A DNA stretch of 39,905 nt. Origin: an uncultured Nitrososphaerota archaeon (GTDB lineage Archaea; Thermoproteota; EX4484-205; DTQO01). Below, piece after piece: positions 12,693 through 36,557 of the stretch (position 1 is its first letter; the number at the start of each line of letters is the position of its first letter). The stretch is from assembly GCA_964631995.1 (NCBI GenBank), contig CAZWAU010000037.1, positions 1 to 39,905 on the forward strand, in the 5' to 3' direction. The notes under the pieces are model-generated. The model did not search any database. It was not told the origin of the DNA and was given only the letters and a program-made list of their open reading frames with translations. The translations under genes and the position numbers were made by a program.

Positions 12693-12840
12693 CATAGTAT
12701 ATGCATGGACTTTTTCGACTGAACAATATATCTGCAATAGACAGGAGCTTCAAGGAATATCTGCATCAATACTTAGCGTAAGTTTGAACTACCGATTAGT
12801 CCCATGCTGGAGAAATGTCCAATTCTTTTTTGTGCTCATG

Positions 12841-13401
12841 CTAGAAGAAAATCATCCTCCATACTTTGGGCTTGTACACCTTGTAGAATGACAACCATGC
12901 ACTTCTCAGCTATTTTGATTAACGTTCTTAGGTTGTTCGATATCTCTCGCCAAATGGGAAGTACCGATATCGTTGGAATCGACCTCAAAAAAGTAATATA
13001 GTTCAAATCACTTCCGGGTTCGCTTCCCTTCCAGAAAAGTAATCATTCAAGCGCGCTCTCAAACTCATACCTGCTTGCATAACCAATCATTTCGAATCTT
13101 GAGTCTATTATGGTTTTACACTTCCTCCAAAGGCTTTTTCTATTGCATTGAACAAATCCTCCCCAAATGAAGAGGCTACTACCTGTGAGCCAGCCAATTA
13201 GATGAGATCCAGATCATTCCATCTTTGTTGTATTACGATATACGATTCAAGACATTCTATTTGATGATCCACATCTTGTCTTATCCTTCTACCAAGTTTT
13301 TCAAGGACAAAATCTTCTATGGTCAGTTTCTTGCAGGATTCCGCTCCAATGGGGTATAGCGCTCTTCGAACATGAAGTAATATGACTACCAAGTGAATCA
13401 A
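12841..13401 (-). pseudogene. Decayed paralog of the 379-aa ORF at 36737-37876
   Basis: Minus-strand frames give EDFVLEKLGRRIRQDVDHQIECLESYIVIQQR (compare EDLISDSLGERIRPDIDHPVQCQESLIEVQQR) and, after stops and frame changes, WREISNNLRTLIKIAEK (compare NERISRNLKTIISISEK). It is interrupted by stops and shorter than the intact copy. Confidence 0.55.
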
Positions 13402-13889
13402 CCACTCGTTCTGATAGAAAAGGTGATGAGAAATCTAAATGATGTCTTTTGCCTAACTTAGCTGTAATTACGCATCATGCCTCATGAACTTCGCTATGGC
13501 TTTAGAATACCCCTATCGCTCTTTGTGCTTGCCTCCACAGCTGAAAGAGACCCTACCATTGCTCAGATAGGCATGATGCATTACCGTTGAGCTACGTGCC
13601 ACATAAAGATGTAGCTGAGCTGAGGGAGAAGATGAAGATGAGAGATTCTTGGTCAGAGATAGGACCAGACTCAAGAATGTGCTTTCATACTAGGAATAAG
13701 CAACTGAAGGAGTTGGCCTCTTCATAGAGTTGGGTATAACATGTCTTCACAGCTTGAACTAGTCGGAGCTTATCGCTAAATGACTGTCCAATGCAAGGAC
13801 ATAAAAAATAATCGGGGGAACTTTTTGCGAACGAAGCTTATCGCCCTCTGAAGGACGGACAGGAGCATGCCCTTCATTGAAGGAGAAAT

Positions 13890-13911
13890 AAAAAAATTGA
13901 TGCAAAATAAA
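13890..13911 (-). terminator. Oligo-T tracts downstream of tRNAi-Met
   Basis: The minus strand reads TTTATTTT directly after the tRNA 3' end, with a T7 run about 20 nt further on. These are archaeal-style oligo-T terminators. Confidence 0.4.
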
Positions 13912-13932
13912 GTTAGGTAGCGGGGAGTAGAT

Positions 13933-13955
13933 CTGTTCCTCGCCTTTCGGCGAGC
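13933..13955 (-). other. tRNAi-Met intron 4 (23 nt, T-loop 58/59)
   Basis: Perfect central helix GTTC/GAAC, bulges AAG and AGA, and an inner 6-bp hairpin CTCGCC-GAAA-GGCGAG. Removal gives the T-loop TTCAAAT. Confidence 0.8.
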
Positions 13956-13984
13956 TTGAACTACCGATCTCAGGGTTATGAGCC

Positions 13985-14001
13985 TTCCGCGCAGAGCTGC
14001 G
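13985..14001 (-). other. tRNAi-Met intron 3 (17 nt, position 29/30 in the anticodon stem)
   Basis: Perfect central helix CCGC/GCGG, bulges AGC and AAG, inner helix GCA/TGC, outer helix TAG/CTA-like (3 bp). Removal creates the anticodon stem CAGGG/CCCTG. Confidence 0.8.
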
Positions 14002-14014
14002 CTGCGGGCTAGAC

Positions 14015-14032
14015 CTCGCCAGCCTTTGGCTT
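14015..14032 (-). other. tRNAi-Met intron 2 (18 nt, D-loop about 18/19)
   Basis: Central helix (A)GCC/GGC(G) with 3 good pairs, bulges AGA and AGG, inner helix AGCC/GGCT with an AAA loop. Removal leaves the D-loop AGCCAGGTCTA with G18G19 restored. The outer helix is weak, so this is a relaxed BHB. Confidence 0.6.
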
Positions 14033-14047
14033 CTGGCTGCCCCACCC

Positions 14048-14063
14048 GTTTAGGGCGCCGCCT
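14048..14063 (-). other. tRNAi-Met intron 1 (16 nt, position 4/5)
   Basis: Central helix TTAG/CTAA flanked by 3-nt bulges CGA and ACG. Inner helix GGC/GCC, outer helix GGT/ACC. Cleavage after the second bulge base joins AGCG to GGGT. Confidence 0.75.
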
Positions 14064-14067
14064 CGCT

Positions 14068-14082
14068 AAGGTTTTCCCCGCT
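14068..14082 (-). other. tRNAi-Met 5' leader carrying a contiguous copy of the acceptor 5' strand (AGCGGGG)
   Basis: The minus strand reads AGCGGGGAAAACCTT immediately upstream of the tRNA. The first 7 nt equal the mature acceptor 5' strand, which in the gene itself is only assembled by splicing intron 1. Confidence 0.6.
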
Positions 14083-14105: not shown

Positions 14106-14112
14106 CATATAG
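14106..14112 (-). promoter_or_regulatory. Putative TATA box for tRNAi-Met
   Basis: Minus-strand CTATATG lies 24-30 nt upstream of position 14082. This predicts a transcription start at about the first base of the 15-nt leader. Confidence 0.5.
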
Positions 14113-14227
14113 ACTTTATGTTTCATGCCCTTGCCTGCTGTGTTGTAGCAGGCTTTCTCCAAGCGTTTTGGAAGAAAAATGCCCAATTATGGCCCTTTGA
14201 TCCAAGCTTGGTCTTGCCCAAAGCTGG

Positions 14228-14866
14228 TCATTGTGGGTACTTTAGAACCCAGATCTCGGTCTCCTCGGGCAGATCCTTCCTTTCAACTTCGATCGATGTG
14301 GTTTCAAACCTCTTTATTCTCTCTTTGCCCTGTAGGAAGGCGTCCACCTTCTGAAGGCGGAATGGAAGCGATGGAGTGCCGAAGTGCATCGGTATCACTA
14401 CCTTCGGCTTCACCTGGTCGACCACTATCGAGGCCTTCGCCGCATCTATCGTGAATGTCCCGCCAACCGGTATGAAAAGAATGTCAACTTTTCCCATTGA
14501 CCTCAGTATCTGTTCATCCAGTATGTGGCCCAGGTCCCCTAGATGAGCAAGAACAATGCTATCCATTCCGATCGTGAATATTGTGTTCCGCCCCCTCTTA
14601 GCACCAACTTCCTCGTCGTGGAACACGTGGATGGCTTTAACGGAAATGTCCTTGGATTTGTAGTCTCTCTTTATCGCGGTCGGGTTTCCCTTCAGGGCCG
14701 CTACGTAGTTGTGGTCTGTATGCTCATGCGAAACAAGGACGTAGTCAGCATCGACCGAGGGCATCGGATAACCGAGCTCCCTCCCGTCGAAAGGATCGAG
14801 CACAACCTTGGTCCCTTCCGCGCTAGTCAGGCGAAAACAAGCGTGGCCAAGATATTCTATCCTCAT
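14228..14866 (-). CDS. Metallo-beta-lactamase-fold hydrolase (UPF0173-like)
   Basis: MRIEYLGHACFRL...DPF...VLVSHEHTDHN (HxHxDH) and a later HFGT motif. 212 aa. Confidence 0.85.
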   Translation of the reverse strand: MRIEYLGHACFRLTSAEGTKVVLDPFDGRELGYPMPSVDADYVLVSHEHTDHNYVAALKGNPTAIKRDYKSKDISVKAIHVFHDEEVGAKRGRNTIFTIGMDSIVLAHLGDLGHILDEQILRSMGKVDILFIPVGGTFTIDAAKASIVVDQVKPKVVIPMHFGTPSLPFRLQKVDAFLQGKERIKRFETTSIEVERKDLPEETEIWVLKYPQ

Positions 14867-32535: not shown

Positions 32536-32764
32536 CTTTATTTACCATCACCATCCGTTTTTCAGAGTTCGCTCTTCATTTTTTATCCCATTTTATACAT
32601 AGTTCTCGAGCAATATTGAGTCAAAATAAAACAAATTAGAAAAATTCGCATATCGCCTTACTATCGTCGAGTTCTCCAGTGGAAGGCAGCCTGGTCACCC
32701 TCACCATTTCCACTCTGTTTTCGAGCCCTTTTGACCGCTTATGGGGACGTGCGCAAAAAAAGCC

Positions 32765-32772
32765 TTATATTT
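32765..32772 (+). promoter_or_regulatory. Putative BRE/TATA promoter of the stand-alone 23S rRNA gene
   Basis: A purine-rich AAAAAAAG tract precedes CCTTATATTTAA. No other gene lies between it and the 23S processing stem about 210 nt downstream. Confidence 0.5.
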
Positions 32773-32981
32773 AACCCGTATCATTAGGGAGGAAGTAGGT
32801 CGCTGTATCTAGTGTCGAGGCTCGATGCCAAGACGTTACGGCCTTCAGATGAGGAGTAACGCTCGGCTGCTGAAACTCGGTGGCTCGCGACCGGAGTGCA
32901 ACTCCGGATCGGAGGGTTCGGGGTGAAGGGTGCTAGCGGACCTTTAACACAATGGAGAGTCCGCGATGAGCGCCGAGCAAA

Positions 32982-33011
32982 GGTAGAAGCGCCAACTGAG
33001 TGGTCACTGGG
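32982..33011 (+). other. 5' strand of the pre-23S processing stem with BHB motif
   Basis: GGTAGAAG pairs with CTTCTACC (36580-87). Central helix is CGCC (32990-93) / GGCG (36573-76). The 5' bulge is AAC (32994-96). A ~15-bp helix follows, 32997-33011 with 36558-36572. Confidence 0.8.
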
Positions 33012-33226
33012 TGGAATACGTCCGACATGATACGCCACCTAGAGAATGGCTTGGCTCAGGCGCCGAAGAAGGGCGTGGCAAGCTGCGATAAGCCTCGGGT
33101 AGGAGCAAGTATCCTGCGATCCGAGGATCCCCGAATTGGATACCTTCCGGCGGTGCGCGCAAGCGTGCCGTTGGAACACCCGAAAGGGTGAGGTAACCCA
33201 CCGAAAGGAAACATCTGAGTAGGTGG

Positions 33227-33258
<32 letters not shown>

Positions 33259-34948
33259 ACGGCGAGTGAAAAGGGAAAAGCCCAAACCGAACCGCGCGTC
33301 GAAAGGCGCGTGGGATGTGGGGTTGAGGACCGGACCTCCTCTCTGCCTGCGAAGTCGAAGAGGCCTGGAAAGGCCCACGAAAATGGGTGATAGTCCCGTA
33401 GACGTTGGCCGGCGTGAGTTGGGTCTGAGTTCCTGAGTACTGCGCCTCGGATATGGCGCAGGAAGCTGGGAGCTATTCACTTCCAAGGCTAAATACGTCC
33501 TGAGACCGATAGCGCACCAGTACGGTGACGGAAAGCTGAAAAGAACCCCGAGAGGGGTGTGAAAAGAGCCTGAAACTAGGTGGTTACAGACGTTCACGGC
33601 CTGAAAGGGTTTGAATCCCCCAAAAGTTTCCGGTCGAGAGGCTGGAAGCGATGGGGGGCTACCAGGGTCGTGAGTTTCGTCTTGAAACACGAGCCGGGGA
33701 GTTTATGGCCGTGGCAAGCCTAAGGGGTACTATCCCCGTAAGCGTAGGGAAGCCAACTAGCCTGCAACCGCCTTAACGGCGGCGAGAGGCGGGGTAGCGA
33801 TTGCCCGTAGTCACGGCCTTAAGACTAGAAACCGAACGATCTAATCCTGGGCAGGGCGAAGCCGGGCGAAAGCTCGGTGGAGGCTCGAAGGGGTCCTGAC
33901 GTGCAATTCGGTCCTCAGACCTGGGATTAGGGGACAAAAACCAATCTAGTTCGGTGATAGCTAGTTCCTTCCGAAATGGATCTCAGTCCAGCCCGCCCGG
34001 AGGAGGTCGGCAGGGTAGAGCACTGATCGATGGGCAAGGCCTCGAAAGAGTCCACCCGTCTTTCAAACTCCGAATCTGTCGACACCGTAGATGGGCGGAG
34101 ACGGGTTCCAGGGGGTAAGCTCCTGGACCGAGAGGGGAACAACCCAGACTAGGGTTAAGGTCCCTAAATGCTGGCTAAGTGTTATTCGAAAAGGCGTCTC
34201 GACTCTCAGACAGCGGGAAGGTAGGCTTAGAAGCAGCCATCCTTTAAAGAGTGCGTAACAGCTCACCCGCCGAGAGTCAAGGCCCTGAAAATGGACGGGG
34301 CTCAAGCCAGCTGCCGATACCCTAGAGCGCAGCCTGAGGCTGCGTCTGGTAGGAAGGCGTCCGAGTTGGGCCGAAGCTGGGCCGTGAGGTCCGGTGGACC
34401 GACTTGGATTGCAGATCCCGGTGGTAGTAACAGCTAAGACAGGTGAGAATCCTGTCCGCCTGAAGGACAAGGGTTCCCCGGCAACGCGTCGTCAGCCGGG
34501 GGTTAGTCGATCCTAAGGCCTCGTTTAACATGCGAGGTCGAAAAAGGGAAGCCGGTTTACATTCCGGCACCAGGGGGGTACACGCGGTAACGCAAGCCCT
34601 CACGCTGACGCTTCGGGGCAGGTTGAGCGGGGCTGTCGCTCCGTCTAACTGTCCAAGCCTGGGAAGTACCGTAAAGGTGAGAACTAGGCGAAGGCAGGAA
34701 TGGCTTGCCGTTAGGCGAGTTCAGCTGGGCCCTGGAGCCATGGAAAAGGCGTGGGGGATGGATCCCCTCTGATCGTACCAAGATCCGACACTGGTGTTCC
34801 TGCGTGAGAAGCGCAAGGCGTCTCGGGGTATTCCACGGCGAGGGAACTTGGCAATCTAGCCCCGTAACTTAGGGATAAGGGGTGCCTGAGGCTGGGCTTC
34901 GGCTTGGTCTCAGGTCGCAGTAACTAAGGGGTCCCGACTGTTTACTAA

Positions 34949-35332
34949 ACGGGCAAAGGCACCGGCTTAATGTTCGAGATGGAAAAAAGGTAGAATTCCC
35001 CGGGGACGGAAGTTGCAAGAAAATCTGTGCCTGCTGCGTTCCAACAGACCGGACGAATTCGAAGATTTTTCAGAAATAGCAAAAAGCTCCAATGCGAGAA
35101 TAGATCGGCAGAACTTCGGATTCCTTTGGCTCAGAGATTCGTTGCGGATTTGTTTGGTGCAGAGGCACGCTGAAGATGGTGTCGTTGTAAGAATTCATAG
35201 CTTTACAGAATGCATGAAACCTGGCGCGGAGGGCTCTCGCATCTTCGCGCTCGGATTGGGTGTTGAGTTTTCCTAGAAAATCTGAGAAGTTTGTTCCGTC
35301 TCAAAGGCCAAAGGTGCGCTTGCCCGAGTAAC
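34949..35332 (+). other. 23S rRNA intron A (384 nt)
   Basis: Canonical hBHBh' motif: outer helix TGTT/AACA, central helix TACT/AGTA, bulges AAA (34947-49) and ACA (35331-33), inner helix CGGGCAA/TTGCCCG. Splicing gives GACTGTTTACTAA|AAACACAGG, the same length as the universal GACUGUUUAAUAAAAACACAGG. Confidence 0.85.
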
Positions 35333-35595
35333 AAACACAGGGAGCCGCTAGTCCGAAAGGATGTGCACGGCTCTTGAATCCTGGCCAGTGGCGGTATCTG
35401 AATCCCAGGTTCAACTGGGCCAAGGACCGCTAAACGCCCGAGGTAACTCTGACCTTGTTAAGGTAGCCAAATGCCTTGTCGGGTAAGTTCCGACGTGCTT
35501 GAATGGAGCAACGAGGGCCCCGCTGTCCCCGCCTGGATCCCGGTGAACCCACATAACGTGGCTGCACAGTCCACGATCTCCCAACGGGACAAGAA

Positions 35596-35625
35596 ATTCT
35601 CTTAGAAAACCTAGGAGAACTTGCC
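35596..35625 (+). other. 23S rRNA intron B (30 nt) between E. coli-equivalent positions 2060 and 2061
   Basis: Central helix CAAG (35590-93) / CTTG (35620-23), bulges AAA (35594-96) and CCG (35624-26), inner 9-bp hairpin TTCTCTTAG-AAAAC-CTAGGAGAA, outer helix GGA/TCC. Splicing gives AAGAA|GTCCACGTGGAGCTTTACTG, the same length as AAGAAGACCCCGUGGAGCUUUACUG. Confidence 0.8.
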
Positions 35626-36127
35626 GTCCACGTGGAGCTTTACTGCATCCTGTAGCTGGGATGTGGTCGCGGATGCAGAGTGTAGGCGGGAGCCGTTACA
35701 CTCAACCCTTCCGGGGGTTGGGAAGGCGACAATGGAACACCGCCCGTCAGTGACCTATTCTCTTACCGGGTGAAAGCCCGGGACAACTATTGGTGGGCAG
35801 TTCGGCTGGGGCGGCCCCCTCTTGAAAAGATATCGAGAGGGCCCTAAGGTCAGCTCAGACGGAACAGAAACCCGTCGTAGAGTGCAAGGGCAAAAGCTGG
35901 CCTGATTCGGTCCTGCAAAGTAGAGGACCGAAAGGCGAAAGCCTGGCCTAGCGATCCTCCATGTCCTTATGGATAGGGGCTGGAGGTGACAGAAAAGTTA
36001 CCCCGTGAGTAATTGGCTCGTCGCGGGCAATAGTTCATATTGACCCCGCGGTTTGGTACCTCGTCGTCGGCTCTTCCCATCCTGGCGGTGCATAAGCCGC
36101 CAAGGGTAGGGCTGCTCGCCCGTCAAA

Positions 36128-36223
<96 letters not shown>

Positions 36224-36557
36224 TTATCTGTTGGGAGTGCTGGTCGCTTGAGGGGAAGGTGTCCACAGTACGAGAGGAACTGGGCGCCGCGGCCTCCGGT
36301 TTACCGGTTGTCCGACAGGGCAACGCCGGGCAGCTGCGCCGTCTTCGATAAGACCTGAAAGCATCTAAGGTCGAAGCGAATCCCGAAAATAAGCGGCCAA
36401 TCCGAGAAACCATGGCAGACCTGGTAACAGGCCTGCTCTCTCGGACGAGGGCTGGGATAGTAGATCCCGTTGATAGGTGGGGGGTGTACGCGCGAAGGCT
36501 TCGGCCGACGCGTTCAGCCCGCCCATACTAATCGCCCAAGGTGTCGGGCGGAAAAAA

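Follow-up and report, generated by a model that had tools for sequence, protein, structure and literature searches.

According to reviews published up to 2021, archaeal tRNA genes contain at most three introns (PMC4033280; PMC3218864; PMC8450103). Multi-intron tRNAs are known from the Thermoproteales Pyrobaculum, Thermofilum, and Caldivirga (Sugahara 2007/2008, as summarised in PMC4033280 and PMC4090602). Higher numbers appear in Supplementary Data 4 of Valentin-Alvarado et al. 2024 (PMC11291895), which has columns for a fourth intron. For Freyarchaeia Arg-TCT and Ile2-CAT, four introns were predicted and four were observed, and for Freyarchaeia Leu-GAG and Atabeyarchaeia-2 Trp-CCA, three were predicted and four observed. 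In the same table the Asgard initiator tRNA has three introns, and no initiator with four is listed. The initiator gene is also disrupted in Thermofilum pendens, whose permuted tRNA-iMet (Chan et al. 2011, PMC3218864) is broken at position 59/60, the clue to its structure being an unusually long promoter-to-gene distance. The halves of split tRNAs, as in Nanoarchaeum equitans and Caldivirga, are kept together for the endonuclease and the ligase by complementary extensions (PMC4090602).

The locus described here lies in a 39,905-nt stretch of DNA (the window) from an uncultured hot-spring archaeon related to Brockarchaeota (Thermoproteota/TACK); the archaeal origin of the window is evident from the archaeal 23S rRNA and archaeal SRP RNA that it carries (Rfam). 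On the evidence of its sequence and that of its orthologues, the locus is very probably a functional initiator tRNA-Met gene interrupted by four introns. Like the multi-intron genes of Thermoproteales, it belongs to the TACK/Thermoproteota archaea and combines several short (11–25 nt in that group) BHB or relaxed-BHB introns at non-canonical sites within one gene. It differs from them in having four introns instead of the maximum of three given in the reviews, in lacking an intron at site 37/38, and in coming from a Brockarchaeota-related lineage. Four introns per tRNA gene are shared with the Asgard archaea (Atabeyarchaeia and Freyarchaeia), which represent another phylum and for which, as far as the consulted parts of PMC11291895 go, four-intron genes appear only in the supplementary table, with no comparison of orthologues across the junctions. 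The original prediction held that three introns were the maximum and that four would be extreme; this record is outdated, as the Asgard entries demonstrate, and four introns equals, and does not exceed, the highest documented count found in the sources consulted. The gene is thus an extreme case of a known phenomenon, with a leader copy of the acceptor strand as a possible new twist. In the same sources, no earlier four-intron tRNA gene was found outside the Asgard archaea, and none that encodes the essential initiator tRNA, so that this gene is the first on both counts. With the permuted gene of T. pendens it shares the disruption of an essential initiator gene in the T-loop and BHB processing; unlike that gene, it is colinear, and the T-loop break is an ordinary intron at 58/59. 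A search for published work on Brockarchaeota and tRNA introns found nothing relevant, and the description of Brockarchaeota mentions neither tRNA nor introns.

The gene occupies positions 14067–13918 of the minus strand (150 nt). When this segment is cut into blocks of 4, 16, 15, 18, 13, 17, 29, 23, and 15 nt and the odd-numbered blocks are joined, five exons of 4, 15, 13, 29, and 15 nt yield a 76-nt tRNA, AGCGGGGTGGGGCAGCCAGGTCTAGCCCGCAGGGCTCATAACCCTGAGATCGGTAGTTCAAATCTACTCCCCGCTA. Exon 1 (AGCG, tRNA positions 1–4) lies at 14067–14064, exon 2 (GGGTGGGGCAGCCAG, positions 5–18) at 14047–14033, exon 3 (GTCTAGCCCGCAG, positions 19–29) at 14014–14002, exon 4 (positions 30–58, including the CAU anticodon) at 13984–13956, and exon 5 (ATCTACTCCCCGCTA, positions 59–73, the last base being discriminator A73) at 13932–13918, all on the minus strand. 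The inserts between them, on the same strand, are intron 1 (16 nt, 14048..14063, site 4/5), intron 2 (18 nt, 14015..14032, in the D-loop), intron 3 (17 nt, 13985..14001, site 29/30), and intron 4 (23 nt, 13933..13955, in the T-loop, site 58/59), which together make up 49% of the gene. The junction of intron 2 can be drawn at either of two adjacent bases (G|...G|G), which places it at 18/19 or 17a/18. The 37/38 site is uninterrupted. In PMC4090602, 29/30 is among the listed non-canonical sites, and introns in the T-loop, for instance at 56/57 and 59/60, are common; 4/5, 18/19, and 58/59 are absent from the short list given there.

ARAGORN recognized the joined 76-mer as tRNA-Met(cat) with a normal cloverleaf (acceptor stem of 7 bp, D stem of 4 bp, anticodon stem of 5 bp, and T stem of 5 bp). 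The joined tRNA has a CAU anticodon, an A1-U72 pair, and three consecutive G-C pairs, G29-G31:C39-C41. An A1-U72 pair and a run of three G-C pairs next to the anticodon loop are marks of archaeal/eukaryotic-type initiators and set them apart from elongator Met or Ile2 tRNAs. The coordinates 13918–14067, the exon blocks, and the insert lengths of the original prediction are exact as they were claimed, and its complete 76-nt initiator with A1-U72 and three G-C pairs is recovered by ARAGORN. The same program, which had been suggested as a check, gave a divided answer: the joined exons were called, but the unspliced locus was not, even in intron mode. Rfam likewise produced no tRNA match on the unspliced locus, either at the gathering score or at E-values up to 10. 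Such misses are expected and are no argument against the gene. Since ARAGORN and Rfam/Infernal overlook it, an initiator tRNA would seem to be missing from the MAGs of this lineage, with consequences for estimates of MAG completeness and tRNA complement.

A split or permuted gene is ruled out by the arrangement of the five exons, which are colinear and lie on one strand within 150 nt, downstream of one conserved TATA box. Self-splicing group I or group II introns are ruled out as well: Rfam matched no intron family in the region at E-values up to 10, and inserts of 16–23 nt are not ribozyme-sized. Within the 39.9-kb window, the CTCATAACC site occurs once, and there is no second, uninterrupted initiator gene and no gene for EndA or RtcB.

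Four independently assembled metagenome contigs held at ENA and JGI (L001–L004) match the 241-nt locus at 100% identity and the window overall at 99.8% or more; the locus is thus not an assembly artefact. The tRNA gene lies downstream of a gene for an MBL-fold hydrolase (14228–14866, minus strand), and the nearest named relatives of the MBL protein, from MAGs labelled "Candidatus Brockarchaeota archaeon" and "Thermoproteota archaeon", are 86% identical to it. Orthologues of the tRNA gene were collected from contigs encoding MBL relatives and from one metagenome scan with a pattern that extended from the D-arm to the anticodon and allowed 0–30 nt at two internal intron sites. About ten further distinct versions of the gene were obtained, all of them downstream of the MBL gene where the contig was long enough. 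The metagenome scan revealed no paralogous locus, every match with enough flanking sequence adjoining the MBL gene. A scan of a genome collection with a narrow exon-4 pattern matched one genome, the Brockarchaeota MAG JZ-2.bins.136, in which the sole match is the interrupted initiator gene. Synteny throughout the set is limited to the MBL-tRNA pair: upstream of the MBL gene, L005 and L010 have genes for a B12-binding protein and a URO-D family (methyltransferase-like) protein, and the window has a GFO/IDH/MocA oxidoreductase gene.

The orthologues differ in the number of introns. Intron 1 is the only intron in L010/L011 and L017; introns 1 and 4 are present in L013, L018/L023, and L021; introns 1, 3, and 4 in L014 and L019/L020; and introns 1, 2, and 3 in L005/L007 (GCA_052743815.1) and L008/L009/L012 (Brockarchaeota JZ-2.bins.136 and GCA_038852595.1). 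All four are present in the window and in a sister lineage (L015/L016/L022) with flanks about 93% identical. Wherever an intron is absent, the exon sequence runs on exactly across the proposed junction, and this holds for every orthologue. Thus, intron 2 is absent, with a contiguous and identical junction, from L010, L013, L014, L017, L018, L020, and L021. Intron 3 is absent from L010, L013, L017, L018, and L021, and is represented elsewhere by 13-nt and 17–18-nt versions. Intron 4 is absent from L005, L008, L010, and L017, with alignable versions of 20–23 nt in L013, L014, and L020. No orthologue without intron 1 was present among those found; its length varies from 16 to 22 nt, the variation being confined to the h' loop.

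The comparison with these relatives is decisive for the gene structure. From G5 to A73, the L010/L011 copy, which has intron 1 only, is identical to the predicted spliced product, and under the Rfam tRNA model the L010 copy reaches 48.8 bits, the gathering score being 29. In L017, exons 2–5 are likewise contiguous, and the sole difference is a compensatory T-stem pair. The match of these copies to the spliced product fixes junctions 2–4 without recourse to RNA structure. The 4/5 junction was placed on the basis of acceptor-stem complementarity and the conserved BHB 1. In the whole set, exon changes are limited to the compensatory replacement of A52-U62 by G52-C62 (L005, L008, and L017) and to one T-loop base (L008). 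Compared to the sister lineage, there are no differences in the 76 exon positions, three in the 74 intron positions, and none in the 15 leader positions, while flanks differ by 7.3% (P about 0.003 for the exons). Judged by these differences, the exons are under purifying selection.

A BHB consists of a 4-bp helix between two 3-nt bulges; at the canonical site, this helix takes in the first two bases of the anticodon (PMC4090602), and in this register each cut falls after the second bulge base. We applied the register to junctions that had been fixed beforehand by the orthologues. The central helices (H) of introns 1–4 are TTAG/CTAA, (A)GCC/GGC(G) with one A·G mismatch, CCGC/GCGG, and GTTC/GAAC, so that 15 of 16 central-helix pairs are Watson-Crick, with a chance probability of about 1e-8. 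Where orthologues are without introns 2, 3, and 4, the junctions observed coincide with those predicted by the BHBs.

The four motifs are not equally complete. BHB 1 is a strict hBHBh', with outer helix h ACC/GGU (formed by the leader with G6 G7 U8), H UUAG/CUAA, h' GGC/GCC, and bulges CG|A and AC|G. BHB 3 is of the same type, with h AGC/GCU, H CCGC/GCGG, h' GCA/UGC, and bulges AG|C and AA|G. BHB 2 is relaxed (HBh'): there is no adjacent outer helix, H consists of 3 bp plus the A·G mismatch, and h' is AGCC/GGCU. BHB 4 is also relaxed, with H GUUC/GAAC, an h' of 6 bp with a GAAA loop, and bulges AA|G and AG|A; its outer helix is not adjacent, and if the T stem served instead, the 3' bulge would be 5 nt long. 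Thus, when an outer helix of at least 2 bp is sought at both bulges, introns 1 and 3 have it (3-bp h, 3-bp h'), and in introns 2 and 4 it is missing at the 3' bulge. The relaxed HBh' class is known from Crenarchaeota (PMC4090602). The BHB cores of the original prediction were borne out at every insert; not all of them belong to a full hBHBh', introns 2 and 4 being without an outer helix. The three perfect helices and the D-loop helix with three good pairs were found as described, the fourth position in intron 2 being the A·G mismatch, and the orthologue-set junctions fall exactly after the second bulge base, where the cuts had been placed. The claim of four BHB introns with none at 37/38 is backed by the orthologues that are contiguous and identical across junctions 2, 3, and 4.

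BHB 1 is invariant among the 11 distinct orthologues: 92.7% of its cells are paired overall and 100% in H, and both C-G pairs of h, together with the four H pairs, are kept in 11/11. No covariation was detected in the BHB helices, which are invariant, and since BHB 1 never varies, a covariation test is uninformative. In the relatives, the h' helices of intron 4 are imperfect, and the 13-nt intron 3 has essentially no h'. No obvious likeness among the four introns of the kind that transposition might leave was seen by eye.

All four BHB cores can be drawn in one structure on non-overlapping bases, which implies that there is no obligatory order of removal. BHB 3 takes up the 3' strand of the D stem, so that no precursor cloverleaf would exist during recognition of intron 3. 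At 37 °C, the structure containing all BHBs has an energy of −49.7 kcal/mol, 23 above the RNAfold MFE of −72.8 kcal/mol, and the MFE fold of the precursor does not reproduce the bulges. We take this mismatch as a limit of the energy model, which penalises bulges that are bound by the enzyme. Relaxed motifs are cut by (αβ)2 and ε2 endonucleases, but not by α4 or α2 enzymes (PMC4090602; PMC4033280). The two relaxed motifs thus predict a broad-specificity endonuclease of the (αβ)2 or ε2 type in this organism.

Upstream of exon 1, the sequence has the features of a short transcription unit. A TATA-like box, TCTATATG, preceded by an A-rich BRE-like stretch, lies at 14106..14113 (minus strand) and does not vary among 11 orthologous loci, in whose alignment the following 23-nt spacer is variable. 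The promoter role of TCTATATG is one that we infer from archaeal promoter geometry. The spacer is followed by a heptamer, AGCGGGG (14076..14082, minus strand), that is an exact copy of tRNA positions 1–7 and is conserved in 11 orthologues, GCGGGG being invariant and the first base being A in 10/11 and G in 1/11. The first base of the heptamer, a purine after a pyrimidine, is separated from the TATA-box centre by about 27 nt, and by the same geometry it is the probable transcription start. The remaining 8 nt of the leader, AAAACCTT (14068..14075, minus strand), precede exon 1; their ACC forms h with G6 G7 U8, and their TT starts the central helix of BHB 1. In the RNAfold MFE structure, the partner of the heptamer is the 3' acceptor strand, CCCCGCU. 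With G as the first base, a G·U pair with U72 is retained, although this variant is also in line with a simple preference for a purine start. Downstream of the gene, a T-rich trailer, TTTATTTT ... TTTTTTT (13889..13911, minus strand, with T-tracts at 13911–13904 and 13895–13889), is probably an archaeal terminator. The discriminator is followed by CC in all orthologues, and by a full CCA only in L005 (L005:7047–7050, compared to 13915–13917 in the window). Most lineages thus have no encoded CCA, which is presumably added after transcription.

Two further uses of the leader were tried by hand. Cuts after heptamer position 4, 5, 6, or 7, which would make the heptamer a 5' exon and splice donor, gave no BHB, so that under BHB rules the heptamer is not the 5' exon. 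Nor is there a nested second BHB that would remove the 15-nt leader after splicing of intron 1.

The arrangement suggests the following pathway, in which we infer the enzymes, the point where transcription begins, and the order of the processing steps. A single short transcript extending from the TATA-box promoter to the oligo-T tract would contain the four mini-introns, each of which, together with adjacent exon or leader bases, would fold into a BHB. The archaeal tRNA splicing endonuclease would cut after base 2 of each 3-nt bulge, and an RtcB-type ligase would join the exons; the 5' leader and the 3' trailer would then be trimmed and CCA added. If BHB 1 is used with the leader still attached, a ligated intermediate AGCGGGGAAAACCUU-AGCGGGGU... 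is expected. Tentatively, the heptamer may serve as a surrogate acceptor strand, paired with CCCCGCU while A1, G2, G6, and G7 of the real 5' strand are engaged in BHB 1. After cleavage, it would keep the 19-nt 5' fragment, which includes the 4-nt exon 1, on the tRNA body for ligation. Strand exchange would follow, with the real, now contiguous 5' strand displacing the heptamer and exposing the 15-nt leader to RNase P. The holding logic would then be that of the split tRNAs, except that a single transcript is involved here, and that the acceptor strand itself is copied to make the tether, where the split tRNAs use an extra GC-rich extension. A literature search for a leader that mimics the acceptor strand returned nothing specific. 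If the idea is correct, the heptamer would be a built-in splint of a kind not described before, allowing an intron to lie only four bases from the 5' end. An acceptor-strand copy in the leader is a testable idea for how a very short terminal exon can be held. The 4-nt exon, the 13-nt introns of the relatives, and the motifs without an outer helix also offer substrates for testing the BHB tolerance of the endonuclease.

A different role for the heptamer should be considered, in which 14082–14076 is itself the true 5' strand of the acceptor stem, the tRNA is leaderless, and a 31-nt insert between positions 7 and 8 is removed in some other way, leaving three BHB introns and an unusual 5' element. 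The exact and conserved identity of the heptamer with positions 1–7, its location at the start predicted from the TATA box, and its pairing to the 3' strand in the MFE structure speak for this role; the mature sequence would be identical either way. Against this, the hand check yielded no BHB for any splice pair with the upstream copy, while the downstream AGCG sits in a strict and fully conserved hBHBh'. We know of no enzyme that would excise a 31-nt insert without a BHB, and consider this arrangement very unlikely.

The failure of standard finders to see the locus would also be expected of a decaying or non-functional tRNA gene full of insertions, with the working initiator encoded elsewhere. 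However, the exons are invariant save for one compensatory T-stem pair and one T-loop base, though the neighbouring protein is only 78–86% identical, and none of the 76 exon positions differs from the sister lineage despite 7.3% divergence of the flanks. Every insertion has a BHB core in the correct register, the promoter box is conserved, and the metagenome scan detected no paralogous locus. Decay is thus extremely unlikely. That the interruptions result from misassembly or a chimera is refuted, and we give it practically no weight: identity of the 241-nt locus in four independent assemblies is accompanied by recurrence of the four-intron architecture in three more contigs, those of the sister lineage with about 93% identity. 

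The history of the introns was considered on a neighbour-joining tree of the MBL protein, a single-gene tree of weak topology. One clade of this tree includes the window, L016, L005, and L008; all of these share introns 1–3, and intron 4 is confined to the window and L016. The second clade includes L010, L014, L017, L018, L013, L020, and L021, which have intron 1 and, in some cases, introns 3 and 4. The 13-nt form of intron 3 is found in both clades, and intron 4 of the window is of the same length as that of L014 and clearly alignable with it. As the simplest reading of these sequences, introns 1, 3, and 4 would predate the split of the clades, intron 2 would have arisen in the clade of the window, and introns 3 and 4 would each have been lost precisely several times. 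Alternatively, transfer or conversion between alleles may account for the distribution. Close relatives with one, two, three, or four introns at identical sites constitute a "snapshot" series of gain and loss of the kind sought by Fujishima and Kanai (PMC4033280).

An intron is also found in the 23S rRNA gene of the window (33018–36551, plus strand). A 384-nt insertion at 34949–35332, with no ORF of at least 100 aa, interrupts a conserved site, GACUGUUUACUAA|AAACACAG, and is bounded by a strict hBHBh' (h TGTT/AACA, H TACT/AGTA, bulges AA|A and AC|A, h' CGGGCAA/TTGCCCG). Removal of the insertion restores the consensus, which identifies it as a BHB-type rRNA intron, and its strict BHB implies that the splicing system is in use in the same genome. 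A second insertion relative to the Rfam archaeal LSU model, about 51–53 nt in length, is located at about 36116–36168 (plus strand), near GGGCUGUUCGCC...GCGAGCUGGGUUUAG. This insertion, for which only a weak and unconvincing BHB (CGCG/CGUG) can be drawn, may be a mini-intron or else an expansion segment. Near the 3' end of the 23S rRNA there is an additional block of about 47 nt. The region upstream of the 23S gene (32536–33017) has no 16S gene, and an opposite-strand ORF of 619 aa ends 480 nt away. Rfam detected no SSU or 5S rRNA in the 39.9-kb window, and the rRNA genes appear to be unlinked. Downstream of the tRNA gene, a segment of about 1.2 kb (12693–13917) has no ORF longer than 73 aa, and no gene was called there in the four metagenome contigs; the sister lineage aligns with this segment at about 93%.
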